A DNA stretch of 64,000 nt from positions 2,312 through 66,311 of the forward strand of contig PFBV01000002.1 in the NCBI GenBank assembly GCA_002778465.1, read 5' to 3'. A program made the position numbers and the translations under genes. The stretch comes from Candidatus Magasanikbacteria bacterium CG10_big_fil_rev_8_21_14_0_10_36_32. Its GTDB lineage: Bacteria > Patescibacteriota > Patescibacteriia > Magasanikbacterales > GWA2-37-8. Positions 2,765 to 53,719 of this stretch are shown piece after piece (positions within the stretch are counted from its first letter, which is position 1; the number at the start of each line of letters is the position of its first letter). Below the pieces are notes generated by a model. The model searched no databases, was not told the origin of the DNA, and worked only from the letters and a program-made list of their open reading frames with translations.

Positions 2765-3157
2765 ATGGCGGGTAAAAAATTAAAAGAAGTTTTGTTGGTG
2801 GTGGAAGATGATGAAATTTTGTTGAGAGCGTTATATTTGATGTTTAACAGTGGGAAATATACCATCGCCACAGCCACTGATGGAGAAACAGCTTTGAAAA
2901 TGGCTGAACGGATAAAACCCGATATGGTTTTATTGGATTTATTGATGCCAAAAATGAATGGCTTTGAATTTCTGAAAGTGTTTAAAGCGCATGATGAATT
3001 AAAAAAAATACCAGTGATTGTTTTGTCTAATTTAGGTGACAGTGACAGTAAGGAAAAAGCAAAAGCATTGGGCGCGATTGATTATTTCGTAAAAGCAAAT
3101 ATTAATTTAACTTCATTGGCAGATAAAATTAAACAAATTTTAAGCCAAAAAACATGA
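2765..3157 (+). CDS. single-domain response regulator, receiver (REC) only
   Basis: VVEDDEIL...MVLLDLLMPKMNGFEF...KANI pattern. The ATG at 2765 is preferred over the listed TTG at 2756. Tandem with the previous REC gene. Confidence 0.7.
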   Translation: MAGKKLKEVLLVVEDDEILLRALYLMFNSGKYTIATATDGETALKMAERIKPDMVLLDLLMPKMNGFEFLKVFKAHDELKKIPVIVLSNLGDSDSKEKAKALGAIDYFVKANINLTSLADKIKQILSQKT

Positions 3158-14843: not shown

Positions 14844-14847
14844 TTCA

Positions 14848-15122
14848 CCCCGTTAGAGATATTTATGGTTTATATTTATTTAATGCAGAGCAAGAAAGAT
14901 AATCTTTGGTATACAGGTGCTACTAGAGATTTAAAAAAACGTTTTAAAGAGCATAATGATGGGAAAGTAAAAGCAACAAGGGATAGAAGACCTTTTGTGT
15001 TAATATATTATGAAGCTTGTTTGAATGAACACGATGCTTTTACTCGTGAAAAATATTTAAAGTCAGGAATGGGAAAACGTTATCTTAAAAATCGTTTAAA
15101 ACGTTTTTTATCTCTAACGGGG
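14848..15122. mobile_element. GIY-YIG cassette bracketed by perfect 14-bp terminal inverted repeats (CCCCGTTAGAGATA ... TATCTCTAACGGGG)
   Basis: The left repeat at 14848-14861 lies 3 nt upstream of the ATG. The right repeat at 15109-15122 lies inside the last codons, immediately before the TAA. The 10-nt core CCCCGTTAGA recurs as an inverted pair at 53097/53199. Confidence 0.5.
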
Positions 15123-15125
15123 TAA
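14865..15125 (+). CDS. small GIY-YIG nuclease-family protein (YhbQ/UPF0213-like)
   Basis: 86 aa. IYL...(11 aa)...WYTG...R..KEHN matches the GIY-YIG core (Tyr pair, Arg, Glu, Asn). Paralogous to the ORF at 47285-47527. Confidence 0.7.
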   Translation: MVYIYLMQSKKDNLWYTGATRDLKKRFKEHNDGKVKATRDRRPFVLIYYEACLNEHDAFTREKYLKSGMGKRYLKNRLKRFLSLTG

Positions 15126-19060: not shown

Positions 19061-20403
19061 TATTTAATATGTTATCTCGCCTTACTAATTATCTTATCCT
19101 CTTATTTTTATTTGCGTTGCCTTTTCAAACCCGTTGGATTATTGAATATGGAATTTTAAATAATCGTCCATGGGAATTTGGGACTATCAGTTTGTATGGT
19201 ACGGAATTTTTTTTATGGCTGATAGTGATTTTGACCGGCATTCGGATTTTTGGCCGACCGGATTTTTGGAAATCATTCTCAAATTGTAGAATCAATGCTG
19301 ATTATTTTAAAATGCACAAAAAAAATATATTGGCTGTTTTGATTTTTTTATTCAGCACGGCTGTTTTTATACGTTCCGGCAATCCGATATCATGGCAATT
19401 TACCACTTGGTTTTTGGGAGGAATATGTTTAATGATTTCAATAGCTGTATCTGAATTATCTTTTTCCCGTGCCGGCATGACATTGTGGTTAAGCGGGGTT
19501 GTGCAAGGAGTATTGGCAGTTCAACAATTTTTTTATCAAAAAATTATTGGTTCAAAATGGTTAGGTATGTCCGCACAAAATTCAAGTGACTCAGGAGTTA
19601 GTGTGGTGCAGTTTGGTGACGAACGCTGGCTGAGAGCCTATGGCAGTTTTGGATGGCCTAATTCTTTGGGAATTTATTTAGCAGTTATCTTTGTTTTGGG
19701 TTTAATTTTATATTTTTATTTTTCTAAAACTAAATGGCGAATATTAATCCTGGTGGGACAATTGATTATTCTAACGGGGTTATTATTGTCTTTTTCCCGC
19801 GGTGCTTGGTTGGCGGCAGTTGGCGGTTTGCTTATTTTTGGGTTGATTGCTTGGAATAATCTGCCTTTTGAATTTACGCGGCGTAAATTTTATAGTCAAT
19901 TTGTAAAACAGTTGGCAGTTTATGCGGTATTAGTAATCAGTCTGGTGACGATTTATTTTCCAGTTTTTACAAATCGGTTTAATACAGGTAATTATTTGGA
20001 ATATTTATCTATAACGGAACGGCAAGATCAATTGAATGTTGCTGGTCAGATGATATCGGACAATTTATTTTTTGGTGTTGGCCCCGGATTGTACACTAAT
20101 TATTTGGCTAGATATTTTGTTTCGCCGACATATGGAGTTTATCAGCCTGTCCATAATATTTTTTTATTAGCACTGGCTGAATTGGGTATATTTGTGTTTT
20201 TATTTATTTTGGTCTTTGTCTTTTGGTTGATTAAAAAAATCGGTCGCGCCGGACCGATTTATTTTTCCGTTTTGACAGTTTTGTTTTTAGCCGGTTTTTA
20301 TGATCATTTTCTTTGGAGTTTATACGCCGGTCAGTTGATTTGGTGGGTGGTTTTGGCTTTAGGATTAATGTTAAAAAAATCGCAATCCAATATTGAAAAA
20401 TAA
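19039..20403 (+). CDS. polytopic membrane protein, O-antigen ligase (Wzy_C)-like
   Basis: About 10 TM helices. FSRGAWLAAVGGLLIFGL lies in a large loop, as in the WaaL/O-antigen polymerase family. Confidence 0.45.
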   Translation: MEKQNKLIFNMLSRLTNYLILLFLFALPFQTRWIIEYGILNNRPWEFGTISLYGTEFFLWLIVILTGIRIFGRPDFWKSFSNCRINADYFKMHKKNILAVLIFLFSTAVFIRSGNPISWQFTTWFLGGICLMISIAVSELSFSRAGMTLWLSGVVQGVLAVQQFFYQKIIGSKWLGMSAQNSSDSGVSVVQFGDERWLRAYGSFGWPNSLGIYLAVIFVLGLILYFYFSKTKWRILILVGQLIILTGLLLSFSRGAWLAAVGGLLIFGLIAWNNLPFEFTRRKFYSQFVKQLAVYAVLVISLVTIYFPVFTNRFNTGNYLEYLSITERQDQLNVAGQMISDNLFFGVGPGLYTNYLARYFVSPTYGVYQPVHNIFLLALAELGIFVFLFILVFVFWLIKKIGRAGPIYFSVLTVLFLAGFYDHFLWSLYAGQLIWWVVLALGLMLKKSQSNIEK

Positions 20404-47158: not shown

Positions 47159-47221
47159 TACGAGATGATTTGTTCAGTGTTTGACTTTTCAATTTATTTT
47201 TGCTATTATTATCCGAGAATT

Positions 47222-47273
47222 GGAGAGGTGGCTTCTGAGCTCCTGCCTGCCGGTAGGCAGGGGTCGAAAGCGG
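47222..47273 (+). pseudogene. duplicated tRNA-Ser 5' fragment (nt 1-12 and 18-29 of the tRNA) interrupted by a 20-bp palindrome
   Basis: GGAGAGGTGGCT and GGTCGAAAGCGG are identical to the intact tRNA-Ser at 47529. CCTGCCTGCCGGTAGGCAGG is inserted at the D-loop position. Confidence 0.55.
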
Positions 47274-47284
47274 TAATAAAATTT

Positions 47285-47527
47285 ATGTATTGCGTGTATT
47301 TTTTACAAAGTCTGAAAGATAAAGGTTTGTACATCGGAAAAACGAATAATATTAAACGTCGGTTATCTGAACACAACGCCGGTAAAGTTCAATCGACAAA
47401 AAGTAGAAAACCTTTTATTTTGTTGGGATTAGAAAAATACCAAACAGAAAAAGAATGTTTGGCGGCAGAATTAGAATGGAAAAAAGGATATAAACGCGAA
47501 CAATTAAAAGTTAGATATAGTCTATAA
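47285..47527 (+). CDS. small GIY-YIG nuclease-family protein (paralogue of 14865-15125)
   Basis: VYF...LYIGKT...RRLSEHNAGKV core. Shares the Y.L.S.KD..LY.G.T....R...HN.GKV..T..R.PF.L pattern with the other copy. Ends 1 nt before the tRNA-Ser. Confidence 0.65.
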   Translation: MYCVYFLQSLKDKGLYIGKTNNIKRRLSEHNAGKVQSTKSRKPFILLGLEKYQTEKECLAAELEWKKGYKREQLKVRYSL

Positions 47528-47528
47528 T

Positions 47529-47624
<96 letters not shown>

Positions 47625-47967: not shown

Positions 47968-48003
47968 AATTTTTTAACCAAGATTTTATTTAACGGGGTA
48001 AAT

Positions 48004-49569
48004 ATGAATAATCATTTAAAATCAATTTTAAAAATCCTGTTAATCGTTTTGTCCTACACTTTCATCATCTGCATTTTTTCCAACAGCTATGACTATGATT
48101 TAGGCTGGCATTTGAGATTTGGCAAAGAATTTTGGGAAAGTTTGAAATTTTCTTTTACCGACACTTACACTTGGCAACATTTTGGACAGTTTTGGACAAA
48201 TCATGAATGGGGAGGTGATTTATTGTTTTGGCCGATTTACAACGATCTTTCTTATTTTGGCTTAATTTTATTAGTCGCTTTGTCGCCGTTGGCGGCGTTT
48301 TTAATTGTTTTGAAAATTTTTCAGCCGCGATGGACGATAGCCGGATTGATTTTAATTTTTGTTTTTTTATGGACAATGCCGCATATCCTGATTTTGCGTT
48401 TGGCAATGTTAACGCCGTTATTTTTGGCAATTCTTTGGTATTTTTTGGAAAAATTTCCTAAGCAAAATAATTATTTTTTTTGGCCGTTGGTATTATGGTT
48501 TTGGTCAATTTTGCATGGCAGTTGGATTTTAGGTTTTATTGTGATTGGTATTTATAGTTTTGGAAATATTTTAAATTTGGTGGCGAAAAAATATTGCCCG
48601 CGTTTTCATAATCCAAAATTATGGTCAATTAAAGATATTCGGAATGCTATTGTTTGGACTTTGATTTCCGCCGGCGTGATTTGCATTAATCCTTATGGTT
48701 GGCATATTTGGCAAGAAGTTATAAATTATTTTTCTTTGTCATTTTACAAATTGCATATCTTGGAATGGGTGCCGAGTTATGTTTATCCGATTTATTGGAA
48801 ACCGCTGTTTATTATGGGCGCCGGCATTCCGTTGGCAGTTTGGGGTTTTGTTAAAAAAAGAGTGACTTTACCGCAAATTCTCTTATTCGCCGCTCTTTGG
48901 TTGGCCGCTTGGCAATATAAACGGCAGGCGATTTTATTTTTATTGGTTTGTCTGTCGTTGTTTTCAGGTTGTTGGGAAATAGTAAAATCAAGGTTATTAA
49001 ATCGTTTTACAATCAAAGTTGTTTATTTTTTTCCGATTATTGCCGTGTTTTTATTAATCGTCGGTTATTTAATCAGGATTGATTGGACAAAAGATATTTG
49101 GAATAATCAAAGTTTATTATCTGCTAACACCATGCCGGTTGAAGCGGTTGAATTTTTGAAGGAACGAACTGTCGGACACACAACTTTTGTATTTAATGAA
49201 TTCAGCTGGGGCGGATATATGAATTGGACATGGCCGGAGGGGTTGGTTTTTTTTGACGGTCGTGGCGCCGCCACTTGGATGTATGATAAAAAAACAACAA
49301 TGACTGAAAAATATTTTAATATTAAATATGAAGCCGGCGGATTTGAATTTTTAGAAGCTTCTCCGGCTGAATATATCATACTCAGTAAAGATGTTATCGC
49401 TTATCCGCCACCGGATAAATTAAACCGGTTGTTTTTTGGACAAAAAGATTTGGATAAAATTTTAAAACCCGCTTCGCCACAGCTTCAGCAAATGCTTGAC
49501 CGGAGCCAAAGTTGGCAAAATATCTATGAAGATGAAGTTTGTAATGTTTGGCAACGGTTCAGCCGATAA
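48004..49569 (+). CDS. polytopic membrane protein (possible GT-C-like glycosyltransferase)
   Basis: At least 10 TM helices. A DYD motif in the first loop. Confidence 0.45.
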   Translation: MNNHLKSILKILLIVLSYTFIICIFSNSYDYDLGWHLRFGKEFWESLKFSFTDTYTWQHFGQFWTNHEWGGDLLFWPIYNDLSYFGLILLVALSPLAAFLIVLKIFQPRWTIAGLILIFVFLWTMPHILILRLAMLTPLFLAILWYFLEKFPKQNNYFFWPLVLWFWSILHGSWILGFIVIGIYSFGNILNLVAKKYCPRFHNPKLWSIKDIRNAIVWTLISAGVICINPYGWHIWQEVINYFSLSFYKLHILEWVPSYVYPIYWKPLFIMGAGIPLAVWGFVKKRVTLPQILLFAALWLAAWQYKRQAILFLLVCLSLFSGCWEIVKSRLLNRFTIKVVYFFPIIAVFLLIVGYLIRIDWTKDIWNNQSLLSANTMPVEAVEFLKERTVGHTTFVFNEFSWGGYMNWTWPEGLVFFDGRGAATWMYDKKTTMTEKYFNIKYEAGGFEFLEASPAEYIILSKDVIAYPPPDKLNRLFFGQKDLDKILKPASPQLQQMLDRSQSWQNIYEDEVCNVWQRFSR

Positions 49570-50799: not shown

Positions 50800-52797
50800 A
50801 TGGCCGAAGGTGCAATTAAAAAAATCGCGGAAAAAATACAGCTTATTCCAGCCAGGAAAAATAATTGGAAAACCGTCGTAATAATATTGGCGGTTGTTTT
50901 TGGTTTATTGGCGGTTGTGTTCGGCGTATCAGTCGTTTATTCCAAAACATACGTTGGAAAAGTTTATCCCGGAATTTATCTTGGGCATTATGATTTGTCA
51001 GGTTGGACAGCCGATGATGTAAAAAAGTTTGTTGATAGTTTTAGCCGACGTTTATCTCAGGAAGGATTGGTTTATATGTTTGAGCAAAACGGGCAATCGC
51101 AAAGAGTAGCGGTTAATCCGGCGCTTATTTCCAGCGAAGCGGCCATTGAAACGATTTTTTTAAGCAATAAAGAATTTGCCGGTGAAATTTTAAATATTGG
51201 CAGGGGAGAATCTTTTTGGTTTAAAAAAATGTGGCTGCCGTTGTGGTATAGAATAAAAACGATTCATTTGTCTTTGCCGGTGAAAATTGACCGTCAGAAT
51301 TTTCAAGGGATTATAGAAAACGCGTTAGAGGGATATGTGATTGAACCGCGTGACGCCAATATTCATTTGAGCAGTATTAATCCGTTGGCTTATGAGCTGA
51401 CTTTAGAACAATCAGGTGAAGTTTTTGATTATGAACAAATTATAGATGATACAGTTCAAAAATTATCTGAGCCGTCGCTGGAATCAATCGTTATTTCAAA
51501 ACGGTTGGTTATTCCATCGGTGACAAAAAAAGATTTAGCGGCAGCTGAAGAAAATATTTTAAGGGCGTTTAATTTTGGTCCGGCGATATTATCCCATACC
51601 GATACCGATGCCAAAGAAACTCAAGTTTGGTCGGTTGGTCCGGAATTATTGGTAAAATGGTTAAAACCTGTTTATGATTCCACCGGGAAAATTAAGTTGG
51701 AATTAAAAGAAAAAGAAGTGGGTCAATATTTGGAAAATTTGAGGGTGATTGTTGATCAGCCGGCTGAGGATGCTAAATTTTCAATGGAAAATGGCAAGGT
51801 GAGTGAATTTAAAAATGGTCATTCCGGACGCAGTTTGAATGTGGCTAAAACTTACGGTGAATTAAATAATTTATTTATCAAAATAAGCCAAGGAGAAAAT
51901 GTTGATAAAACAGTTATTAATTTAGCGGTTGACCAAACCGAACCGAAATTGAAATTATCCGATATTAATGATTATGGAATTACCGGAATATTCGGCGTTG
52001 GTACTTCAACTTTTTATGATAGTCATAATAACCGCATTAAAAATATTGCCAACGCAGTTGAACGGTTGAATGGTATAATTATCAAGCCGGGGGAAGAATT
52101 TTCTTCTATTAAATATGCCGGTTCATTTACTGAAGAAAATGGATTTTTACCGGAAGAAATAATCAAAGGCAATAAAATTATTAAAGAAGTCGGAGGAGGA
52201 ATGTGTCAGATTGGCACCACTTTGTTCAGAATGGCCATGAATTCCGGTATGCCGATTACAGAACGAACCAATCATTCTTTGGTGGTTGGTTATTATGCAG
52301 ATCCAATTAATGGAAATCCGGGTACGGACGCTACTTTGTATGAACCAATTTTGGATTTTAAATTTATGAATGATACCGGCGGTTATTTGTTGTTGCAAAC
52401 GGAAATTAATTATAAAAAACAAATGTTGATTTTTACTTTGTGGGGAACACCTGATGGTCGTTCTGGATTTTATAGCCGTCCGATAGTGAGTAAATGGATT
52501 CCAGCCGGTTTGCCGCAAGAAATAAAAACAACCACTTTAAAACCTGGTGAGACAAAATGTCAAAATGCATTTCGTGGCGCGAACGCCAGTTTTACATATA
52601 CTCGGTTTAATCAATCGGGTGAAAAAATTGAACGGGTATTTTCCAGTTATTACCGTCCGTTGCCAAAAATGTGTATGACTGGCATTAGTCCGAATGAATG
52701 CCCTGACGGAAAAACAACTTGTGATATTATTGTTAAAAATACAGCCACCAGTACGCCTTCGGCCACACCGAATTCTCAACCTCTTTTAGCTGACTAG
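50800..52797 (+). CDS. VanW-domain protein, membrane-anchored
   Basis: N-terminal TM helix. VanW core ...VGGGMCQIGTTLFRMAMNSGMPITERTNHS. Confidence 0.7.
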   Translation: MAEGAIKKIAEKIQLIPARKNNWKTVVIILAVVFGLLAVVFGVSVVYSKTYVGKVYPGIYLGHYDLSGWTADDVKKFVDSFSRRLSQEGLVYMFEQNGQSQRVAVNPALISSEAAIETIFLSNKEFAGEILNIGRGESFWFKKMWLPLWYRIKTIHLSLPVKIDRQNFQGIIENALEGYVIEPRDANIHLSSINPLAYELTLEQSGEVFDYEQIIDDTVQKLSEPSLESIVISKRLVIPSVTKKDLAAAEENILRAFNFGPAILSHTDTDAKETQVWSVGPELLVKWLKPVYDSTGKIKLELKEKEVGQYLENLRVIVDQPAEDAKFSMENGKVSEFKNGHSGRSLNVAKTYGELNNLFIKISQGENVDKTVINLAVDQTEPKLKLSDINDYGITGIFGVGTSTFYDSHNNRIKNIANAVERLNGIIIKPGEEFSSIKYAGSFTEENGFLPEEIIKGNKIIKEVGGGMCQIGTTLFRMAMNSGMPITERTNHSLVVGYYADPINGNPGTDATLYEPILDFKFMNDTGGYLLLQTEINYKKQMLIFTLWGTPDGRSGFYSRPIVSKWIPAGLPQEIKTTTLKPGETKCQNAFRGANASFTYTRFNQSGEKIERVFSSYYRPLPKMCMTGISPNECPDGKTTCDIIVKNTATSTPSATPNSQPLLAD

Positions 52798-52831
52798 CTG
52801 TGTTGGCAGGATAATTTAAACTAAAAAACAA

Positions 52832-52864
52832 ACCACCCCGCATTATTTTGCGGGGTGGTTTAAT
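52832..52864 (+). terminator. rho-independent terminator
   Basis: ACCACCCCGC-ATTATTTT-GCGGGGTGGT followed by a T-run. Confidence 0.65.
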
Positions 52865-53096
52865 TGATATTGGGGGAATGAACCCCCTAGAGTTCCGTAT
52901 TCAAGAAGATGTGTCAAAGGTGGAGATAAGCCGTGGCCTATGCAGACCGTTAACACATCCCCATGCTTGTGGTGAATACGGGAAATTGCTCGTTTTTTCT
53001 CGTTAAAAGGGGCAATTTCTCGTATTCTTACAGCATTGGATGTCCGTAGATTTTCAAACAACAAAGTATTGTATCACATCTAAATCATTTTGTCAA

Positions 53097-53211
53097 CCCC
53101 GTTAGAAAAGCCAATTGAAAAATTTTAGTAATCTTAGCCTAAAAATTGAATAATACCCTGTGGATAAACCTTTAGAAAAGCATCTTTTCGTGGAATAATT
53201 TTCTAACGGGG
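53097..53211. mobile_element. ORF-less miniature element bounded by inverted repeats CCCCGTTAGAAAA / TTTTCTAACGGGG (MITE-like relative of the GIY-YIG cassette repeats)
   Basis: The 13-bp arms share the 10-nt core CCCCGTTAGA with the repeats flanking the GIY-YIG gene at 14848/15109. The ~90-nt interior has no ORF. Confidence 0.45.
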
Positions 53212-53221
53212 TCAAGCCCGA

Positions 53222-53241
53222 CCTGCCTGCCGGCAGGCAGG
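53222..53241. repeat. perfect 20-bp palindrome CCTGCCTGCCGGCAGGCAGG
   Basis: One-mismatch copy at 47242-47261, inside the tRNA-Ser 5' fragment next to the second GIY-YIG gene. Confidence 0.55.
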
Positions 53242-53424
53242 CGTAAAAAAGTCGGGGTCCCGACCCCCCAAAGGGGCGTCGGGAGGGATCAATTTAGTCA
53301 TTTTTTGGTTTAAACTGGGGAAAAATATTATTTTTGGCTAATGTTAGGGTTAAAATCTGTATTATCCGTATTTTGTTTATTAATTCAAGTCAATGTGTTA
53401 ATTTTATTTATTTTTATTTCAGAA

Positions 53425-53456
53425 TAAAACAAAAACCCCGCATTTACGGGGTTTGA
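53425..53456 (-). terminator. rho-independent terminator for the minus-strand small gene
   Basis: AAACCCCG-CATTTAC-GGGGTTT with the T-run on the minus strand. Confidence 0.55.
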
Positions 53457-53473
53457 AGAACAATAAAGGTATT

Positions 53474-53680
53474 TTATTTGCGATTGTGTATGATGTTATA
53501 GAAAAATTCAGCGCTGACTGCGCCAAGGGCTATACCAAACAGAATACCAATCGCGCCCAATGAATTTTTGAATAAGAATCCGATGACTCCTCCGGCCACA
53601 GCTCCAATGAGCATAATTGATTTGTCCAACATTATTTGTCTCCTTGGTTTTGGTTGCGTATTAAAAAGAACATTGTTCAA
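53474..53680 (-). CDS. small Gly-rich two-TM protein, GlsB/YeaQ/YmgE (transglycosylase-associated) family-like
   Basis: 68 aa. GAVAGGVIGFLF...GAIGILFGIALGAV GxxxG-rich helices. Confidence 0.45.
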   Translation of the reverse strand: MNNVLFNTQPKPRRQIMLDKSIMLIGAVAGGVIGFLFKNSLGAIGILFGIALGAVSAEFFYNIIHNRK

Positions 53681-53719
53681 AAGATAGCATTTTTATATAG
53701 ATGTGTCAATTATAGATAA

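Follow-up and report, generated by a model that had tools for sequence, protein, structure and literature searches.

Does a short inverted repeat that encloses no gene belong to a family of mobile elements and, if so, what moves it? The question is raised by a 64,000-nucleotide (nt) stretch of Candidatus Magasanikbacteria bacterium CG10_big_fil_rev_8_21_14_0_10_36_32 (contig PFBV01000002.1, assembly GCA_002778465.1; hereafter the window, at its full length). At 53097-53211 it carries a repeat pair without an open reading frame (ORF), called here the mini, and at 14847-15123 similar repeats flank a gene encoding a GIY-YIG nuclease. The initial annotation read the two as the non-autonomous and autonomous forms of one transposable-element family, the former being comparable to a miniature inverted-repeat transposable element (MITE). 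Our analysis suggests that the mini indeed likely belongs, as a non-autonomous representative without an ORF, to a family of very small mobile elements that end in hairpins and are linked to a GIY-YIG nuclease, a judgment that includes the mechanism proposed below.

The mini and its insertion site

The mini and the host features around it are the following.

53097 to 53211, no strand assigned: ORF-less mini-element CCCCG...CGGGG, 115 bp (53096 to 53212 including the outer A/T pair)
53096 to 53109, plus strand: left arm of the mini, ACCCCGTTAGAAAA, 14 nt, 100% complementary to the right arm
53199 to 53212, plus strand: right arm of the mini, TTTTCTAACGGGGT
53093 to 53096, plus strand: target duplication TCAA, left copy (TTGA on the minus strand)
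53212 to 53215, plus strand: target duplication TCAA, right copy
53068 to 53096, minus strand: promoter-like TTGACA-17-TACAAT, the host target, with 11/12 matches and a TG extension, kept in relatives
52829 to 53061, minus strand: conserved structured noncoding RNA (ncRNA) with its terminator (52862-52829), host context outside the element

The inverted repeat is real, and each of its arms proved to be one base longer than first described (53097-53109 and 53199-53211). The arms are spaced 89 nt apart, and the sequence that they enclose is noncoding, as had been claimed, with no plausible gene and only a mechanically called ORF of 37 amino acids (aa). Read on the minus strand, TTGACA-17-TACAAT follows immediately after the mini, and this promoter reads away from it. 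Four relatives (L209-L212; VanW 52-55% identical) keep the VanW-ncRNA-ClpP layout and carry an uninterrupted GGGCTTGACAAA, or close variants of it, within which TCAA is present in a single copy; the window has GGGCTTGA[CCCCG...CGGGG]TTGACAAAA. The mini is an insertion that splits the −35 hexamer (TTGA/CA) of a conserved ncRNA promoter, and TTGA was duplicated on insertion, thereby rebuilding the −35 box. Contigs of the same strain (L001-L007) are 100% identical to the window and were useless for the comparison of empty sites.

The host ncRNA, of about 190-230 nt, is located between the VanW and ClpP genes. It was found in five Magasanikbacteria relatives, with three hairpins and 10 compensatory pairs, and had no Rfam match on either strand. 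On the other side of the mini, GC-rich hairpins adjoin it within 53213-53300 (cccgac...gtcggg around a palindrome, and tcccgacccccc/ggggcgtcggga); these hairpins and a 68-aa ORF at 53474-53680 are absent from the VanW-ClpP spacer of the relatives. The palindrome, a perfect 20-nt CCTGCCTGCCGGYAGGCAGG, is found at 53222-53241, beside the mini, and at 47242-47261, in a tRNA-Ser pseudo-half. Unrelated loci totaling 1.26 Mb contain seven further copies (one each in L050, L110, and L177 and two each in L080 and L183), sometimes inside minis (L183, and L120 for a near-copy). The palindrome probably represents a second widespread element, smaller still, or a recognition site.

A repeat-ORF-repeat family and its gene-less copies

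The copy of the element that carries a gene comprises these features.

14847 to 15123, plus strand: full-length element (left arm, GIY-YIG ORF, right arm)
14847 to 14861: left arm of the full element, ACCCCGTTAGAGATA
15109 to 15123: right arm of the full element, TATCTCTAACGGGGT
14865 to 15125, plus strand: single-domain GIY-YIG nuclease gene, 86 aa, UPF0213/Slx1-like

The 10-nt core CCCCGTTAGA is common to the arm pair of the mini and to that of the GIY-YIG gene, as first reported. There are five exact copies in the window, two of which bracket the GIY-YIG ORF (14865-15125). With one mismatch allowed, the window has seven matches, against a mean of 1.62 in shuffled sequences, none of which (0/100) reached seven. 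The fifth exact copy, an arm-like TCTAACGGGG at 19770-19779 in a gene of the Wzy_C family, has no partner and most likely reflects chance. An alignment of the mini with the GIY-YIG element on both strands, a check already proposed in the initial annotation, showed matching arms and interiors without detectable similarity, i.e., the two are alike in their arms only.

The putatively autonomous form (repeats plus nuclease gene) is a repeat-ORF-repeat unit kept in 68 full loci (67 fetched genome loci and the window's own copy) from many phyla. Full-length copies have about 275-290 bp and one gene each, encoding the 86-aa GIY-YIG protein. The GIY-YIG family includes 4944 proteins at E<1e-5, and it has spread horizontally, with protein identities of 65-80% between Patescibacteria, Omnitrophota, Bdellovibrionales, Planctomycetota, Clostridia, Nitrospirota, Elusimicrobiota, and others. 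Among the homologs compared, the C-terminal K-R-F-L-S-L-T-G is nearly invariant and the catalytic-type residues are invariant. The terminal repeat is perfect over 13-14 bp, with a near-invariant core N-CCCGTTAGA / TCTAACGGG-N'; in the 68 loci, (N)CCCGTTAGAGA is found 5-25 nt upstream of the ATG, and the ORF ends with TCTCTAACGGG(N'). In pattern form, the arm pair can be written NCCCGTTAGA-N(20-300)-TCTAACGGGN'. GIY-YIG genes have been listed among the genes passed from Patescibacteria to other bacteria (PMC12455944). We found no description of the repeat or of the element in the literature, where the repeat sequence appeared only in unrelated primers, and the family is widespread and apparently undescribed.

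The ends of the element are exact. The right arm encodes the last four codons, S-L-T-G, of the ORF (...F-L-S-L-T-G-stop), and the stop codon lies just beyond the arm core. Where the host flank lacks a stop right behind the arm, the reading frame extends by a few host codons, which fixes the right boundary of the element. On the left side, the "MNPVRD" N termini correspond to gene calls begun at an upstream ATG and reading through the left arm. Near the right end (−4 to +15 nt), a host ORF of ≥60 aa begins in 39 of 61 full copies, compared with 23% at random positions. The commonest setting of full copies is a host ATG overlapping both the element end and the GIY-YIG stop (GGGATGAA), and in this subtype ATGA(A/G) precedes the left arm, which corresponds to a duplicated host start. 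TTGACA is abutted by 19 of 232 elements.

The 86-aa protein matches the Pfam GIY-YIG domain (E 1e-16, residues 2-68) and no other domain. The nearest solved structures are those of UPF0213 proteins, 1zg2 and 1ywl (E 5.5e-8 and 3.5e-3, respectively, in a single-sequence search; 9.8e-10 and 3.7e-4 with a profile); I-TevI and Slx1 rank next, far behind. The match to TIGR01453 was under the cutoff of that model, and searches for transposase, PADLOC, or PHROG matches gave none. A tblastn search of 72,556 plasmids returned only three weak matches, yazA of B. subtilis among them. By its sequence, the protein groups with the stand-alone prokaryotic Slx1-like GIY-YIG proteins described by Dunin-Horkawicz et al. 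(PMC1564403).

Gene-less copies are abundant, as the initial reading predicts. We identified 26 ORF-less pairs with the same arms in the genome loci (618 kb) and the window taken together, with arms 35-116 nt apart. A metagenome scan for the exact 13-nt arms of the window mini, with a gap of 74-104 nt, gave at least 120 stretches, and the metagenome loci listed hold at least 122 gene-less elements, at least 116 of them distinct. The total of ORF-less pairs with these arms exceeds 140. Some minis form subfamilies of 2-6 members with common interiors, located at different sites and with different duplications, and nested copies were also seen among the metagenome loci. One locus (L169, 5867-7455) has three identical 102-bp minis within 1.6 kb, between short ORFs and with no matching flanking duplication.

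We scored target-site duplications immediately outside N-CCCG...CGGG-N' and used re-paired left and right flanks as the null. A direct repeat of ≥4 nt was present at 40 of 94 elements (exactly 4 nt in 38 of them; null mean of 8.9 and maximum of 17 in 2000 re-pairings). An independent metagenome set gave similar evidence, with 64 of 116 elements having ≥4 nt (61 of them exactly 4 bp; null of 6.9 ± 2.4 and maximum of 16 in 5000). The tetramers were of the form T-N-N-A in 46 of 61 cases (TAAA/TTTA, TCAA/TTGA, and TGAA/TTCA), and palindromic tetramer centers were under-represented. Insertion thus takes place at T-N-N-A, the 4 bp of which become duplicated.

The locus of the full element is also polymorphic among relatives. 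In one of them (L216; MBL-fold protein 56% identical), the junction is empty, and the methyltransferase stop and the MBL ATG are 1 nt apart (2990-3003); another, with 74% identity, has unrelated upstream sequence and no arms. A sister species (L215, 650-760; MBL 65% identical, from the same sample as the contig with 75% VanW identity) has an internally deleted full element at the same methyltransferase-MBL junction, in which the left arm and 78 nt from the start of the ORF run straight into TCTCTAACGGGG. This copy shows a full element becoming a mini through internal deletion. Over about 100 nt, two substitutions separate it from the window copy (about 98% identical), and the flanking proteins are 65-75% identical. 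Such near-identical element DNA between far more diverged flanks points to a recent transfer of the element, and not to shared ancestry.

The full element of the window sits in the comEC gene cluster. Between 12797 and 15986, the comEC functions are split over a DUF4131+Competence gene, a gene encoding a methyltransferase, and a separate MBL-fold gene, with the GIY-YIG element between the latter two; the adjacency of the methyltransferase and MBL genes is kept in relatives. A second GIY-YIG gene (47285-47527, within 47181-47624), 39% identical to the first, is found between a duplicated 5' half of tRNA-Ser (47222-47241 and 47262-47273) and the intact tRNA-Ser (47529-47624). It has a promoter-like TTGACT/TATTAT upstream, and the arrangement suggests that a different GIY-YIG gene has inserted into a tRNA gene. 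The mechanical ORF call at 47165-47527 is over-extended.

In total, the 64 kb of the window hold one mini and two possible remnants.

45464 to 45489, plus strand: candidate strongly deleted copy (TTCAC + TTTTTATTTAACAGGGTAAAA), directly before the ATG at 45494; low confidence
47984 to 48003, plus strand: candidate solo right end (TTTTATTTAACGGGGTAAAT), directly before the ATG at 48004; low to moderate confidence

These two sites are possibly solo remnants of deleted elements, and the first is preceded by AAAAAATAATTCAC, as is the full copy. The right arm was also considered as a gene-start or ribosome-binding motif, since TAACRGGGTAAA precedes three ATGs. This was rejected as a general signal because Shine-Dalgarno motifs are essentially missing and because the motif is the conserved end of the element in other phyla. 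Among the genes of the window, Shine-Dalgarno motifs are almost entirely absent, and genes often abut or overlap. At its end (63809-64000), the window runs into a 16S rRNA gene, of which it includes the initial 191 nt.

Pairing of the arms and competing readings

The covariation of the arms was analyzed in the 68 full copies and in the 26 unbiased gene-less ones. Pairing is limited to 14 positions. On both sides of the invariant core lie positions that differ from copy to copy and yet remain complementary, with 91-100% Watson-Crick pairs at variable arm positions versus 40-59% expected. At the outer N, full copies showed C-G (33), T-A (26), G-C (2), and A-T (1), i.e., 91% were paired versus 45% expected, and at the inner position 10 the values were 96% and 40%. 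Gene-less copies were paired in 96-100% of cases at inner positions 8-10, versus 44-59% expected. One base further in, pairing was at chance (0.47 versus 0.48; 0.31 versus 0.26). There were almost no G·T combinations at the covarying positions, where they were no commoner than other mismatches. In full copies, the inner covarying position falls on the third, synonymous base of a Leu codon, and coding constraint alone is insufficient to explain the covariation. The 14-bp DNA stem is under selection. Strict Watson-Crick covariation with almost no G·T fits arms that base-pair as DNA, in a hairpin of single-stranded DNA (ssDNA) or a cruciform, and not an RNA stem. The mini of the window contains one further arm-like sequence.

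53169 to 53181, plus strand: degenerate internal copy of the left arm (CCTTTAGAAAAGC versus CCGTTAGAAAAGC), inside the mini, able to pair with the right arm across 19 nt

Instead of having moved as a mini, the copy at 53097-53211 could be a full GIY-YIG element that decayed in place through internal deletion or replacement. The internally deleted copy of the sister species shows exactly such a process at another site, and the interior of the window mini is an orphan. Yet, this interior is unlike the GIY-YIG ORF on either strand, whereas the sister species keeps 78 nt of the ORF. Moreover, the subfamilies of minis with common interiors at different sites, and with different duplications, indicate that minis move. 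We consider decay in place to be unlikely.

A domesticated nuclease/repeat system, in which the hairpins are recognition sites on ssDNA (e.g., incoming transforming DNA), as has been suggested for Ssn/NTS of Neisseria, and the mini is kept for a host function, seems to us distinctly unlikely. SsnA is known to cut ssDNA beside NTS hairpins and to modulate transformation (PMC11893778). The position of the full element inside the comEC cluster would fit such a role, as would insertions that spare host signals by regenerating a start codon or a −35 box. However, duplications, empty sites, a deletion derivative, and near-identical DNA in diverged hosts reveal insertion events, any host function would postdate mobility, and there is no evidence for a function at the site of the mini. 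The domesticated and mobile readings are not mutually exclusive.

Three further readings were rejected. The repeat might be the closing stem of a structured RNA (ncRNA or cis-regulatory hairpin), since the mini region folds better than shuffled sequences (z of −2.3 and −3.3) and the surrounding intergenic region is highly structured. This is very improbable: a gathering search of the whole window with Rfam and a permissive search of 52780-53700 gave no match at the mini, and interiors are unrelated among about 150 copies, showing that they are not a conserved ncRNA. In addition, G·U is no commoner than other mismatches, direct repeats flank the elements, and the adjacent promoter is directed away. 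We give just as little credit to an invertible DNA switch worked by a recombinase. Short inverted repeats around 35-300 bp do resemble invertons, and the ORF would remain intact after inversion, given that the right arm encodes its C terminus, but the arms have no recombinase associated with them, insertion is what the duplications and empty sites speak for, and metagenome loci sampled twice always had the same orientation relative to their flanks. Finally, a chance pair of 10-mers, for which nothing speaks beyond the AT-rich composition of the genome, is practically impossible given that no shuffle reached the observed count and that the same arms are found in more than 200 elements elsewhere. 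The RNA and chance readings are the two that the initial annotation had set as grounds for its own refutation, and neither holds.

Known systems and a proposed mechanism

The closest known system in its logic is that of the Ssn nucleases and their NTS/SRM hairpin repeats (Chenal et al., Nat Commun 2025; PMC11893778). Ssn are small single-domain GIY-YIG proteins that bind their own hairpin repeats and cut only the adjacent ssDNA, and their authors note an insertion sequence-like NTS-ssnA-NTS layout (PMC11893778). Common to both systems are a GIY-YIG protein with one domain and about 90 aa (86 here), a gene bracketed by hairpin-forming repeats, many gene-less copies of the repeats, and a spread across phyla. 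They differ in that each arm is here half of one long-range 14-bp stem around the gene or cargo, whereas Ssn repeats are self-contained hairpins of 20-50 nt on each side. The SRM motif (HGTCWYN0-2YYVSBRHN0-5WNVSBRGN0-2RNCYNB) had no match within ±500 nt of 57 genes of the family or in the whole window. The protein described here looks UPF0213-like by its nearest PDB entries. Ssn proteins are defined by the domain cd10448 or by a BLASTP E<1e-10 over at least 75% of N. meningitidis SsnA (CAX49033.1), and the nearest PDB entries and the plasmid search hint, indirectly, against such a membership. The present elements also show duplications, empty sites, and a deletion derivative, none of which was reported for Ssn.

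Other systems share part of these traits. Like MITEs and their parent insertion sequences, the minis have terminal inverted repeats in common with a longer coding element and a short duplication, lack an ORF, have about 100 bp, and can arise by internal deletion (as in L215); presence and absence at orthologous sites were found through L209-L212, which are distant relatives only. Unlike in MITEs, the coding partner has no known type of transposase (DDE, HUH, serine, or tyrosine) and only a GIY-YIG protein, interiors are mostly unrelated, and the variable positions of the arms covary as in a hairpin and do not simply match a parent. The IS200/IS605 and REP/RAYT (BIME) systems are also very small, act via ssDNA hairpins, have tetranucleotide targets, and leave many gene-less hairpin copies, but they use a HUH Y1 transposase and sub-terminal hairpins and make no duplication, whereas the elements described here have a GIY-YIG protein, terminal repeats, and a 4-bp duplication.

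Free-standing GIY-YIG homing endonuclease genes (phage T4 Seg and relatives of I-TevI) are likewise selfish GIY-YIG genes between host genes, and they too occupy the same site in diverged genomes with element DNA far closer than the flanks (as in the window and L215). In contrast to them, the 86 aa of the present protein leave no DNA-binding domain, there are terminal inverted repeats and duplications, insertion sites are many and unrelated, and gene-less derivatives abound; homing genes home to one cognate site. The UPF0213/Slx1-like proteins (1zg2 and 1ywl; YhbQ of E. coli and YazA of B. subtilis) are the best sequence match and have the same minimal stand-alone domain, but they are not known to be mobile or flanked by inverted repeats, and they are regarded as vertically inherited repair proteins (PMC1564403).

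We favor a mobile mini, for which the following mechanism can be proposed. The two arms would pair into a 14-bp stem in ssDNA. The GIY-YIG nuclease of the full copy at 14847-15123, acting in trans, would recognize the stem and cut at its base, and host repair or ligation would complete excision and insertion. Minis may arise from full copies by internal deletion or may carry other cargo. We infer that the GIY-YIG protein mobilizes the element because its gene is exclusively associated with the arms and because, by analogy, Ssn nucleases bind hairpins and cut ssDNA. The original idea of a transposable-element family with a MITE-like derivative is supported, every genomic prediction open to testing having been borne out (repeat-ORF-repeat units, minis, duplications, empty site, and deletion). 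Its suggestion that the family is built around a GIY-YIG nuclease stands for the association, this being the only ORF in full copies; that the nuclease is the mobilizing enzyme is drawn from this association and from the analogy with Ssn.

Several observations weigh against this interpretation. Most mini interiors are unrelated to one another in about 150 copies, unlike those of classical MITE families, and the interior of the window mini has no sibling copy among them; amplification of this particular copy as a mini is therefore at most a presumption. About half of the elements have no duplication, including the full copy of the window (flanks TTCA / TAAA). The empty site of the mini was seen in distant relatives only, the predicted 23-mer of the empty site had no match in metagenomes, and the contig of the closest relative (75% VanW identity) lacks the site, ending 3 nt ahead of it. 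GIY-YIG nucleases are hydrolytic, and we know of no strand-transfer or ligation step catalyzed by them; the 4-bp duplication therefore does not follow from the enzyme itself, and host repair or ligation must be invoked. Mobilization by the GIY-YIG protein is deduced from genomes. Finally, an intact tRNA gene is the only cargo of three arm pairs.

L137, 2255 to 2360: mini carrying tRNA Thr-CGU
L139, 2693 to 2799: mini carrying tRNA Pro-UGG
L114, 1753 to 1860: mini carrying tRNA Pro-CGG

A stronger reading, which we find plausible without quite expecting it to hold, is that the full form is an autonomous transposon of about 280 bp whose sole gene encodes the 86-aa GIY-YIG protein, that it works via the hairpin of its own ends, and that it spreads by horizontal transfer and seeds minis capable of carrying cargo. 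If true, this would be the smallest self-mobilizing element known, moving by a mechanism that belongs to none of the DDE, HUH, serine, and tyrosine classes. Horizontal transfer would have carried it through bacteria of the candidate phyla radiation (CPR) and many other uncultured phyla, one of its hairpin-forming ends would double as the C terminus of its gene, and it would have seeded many gene-less copies able to carry cargo such as tRNA genes.

The pairing of a small GIY-YIG protein with hairpin repeats gains here the hallmarks of transposition (exact ends, 4-bp duplications, empty sites, and deletion derivatives), which for Ssn/NTS had been a hypothesis only. The UPF0213/Slx1-like bacterial proteins, supposedly vertically inherited, can be re-read as cargo of mobile elements, at least in this branch, and the defined pair of a protein and a 14-bp hairpin is a candidate for a nuclease system specific to both single strands and sequence. 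The family also explains recurrent annotation errors in CPR genomes, such as "excinuclease ABC subunit C" names and MNPVRD extensions, and probably assemblies broken at the repeats. In these very compact genomes, insertions survive where the duplication gives the host its signal back, at a start codon or a −35 box.
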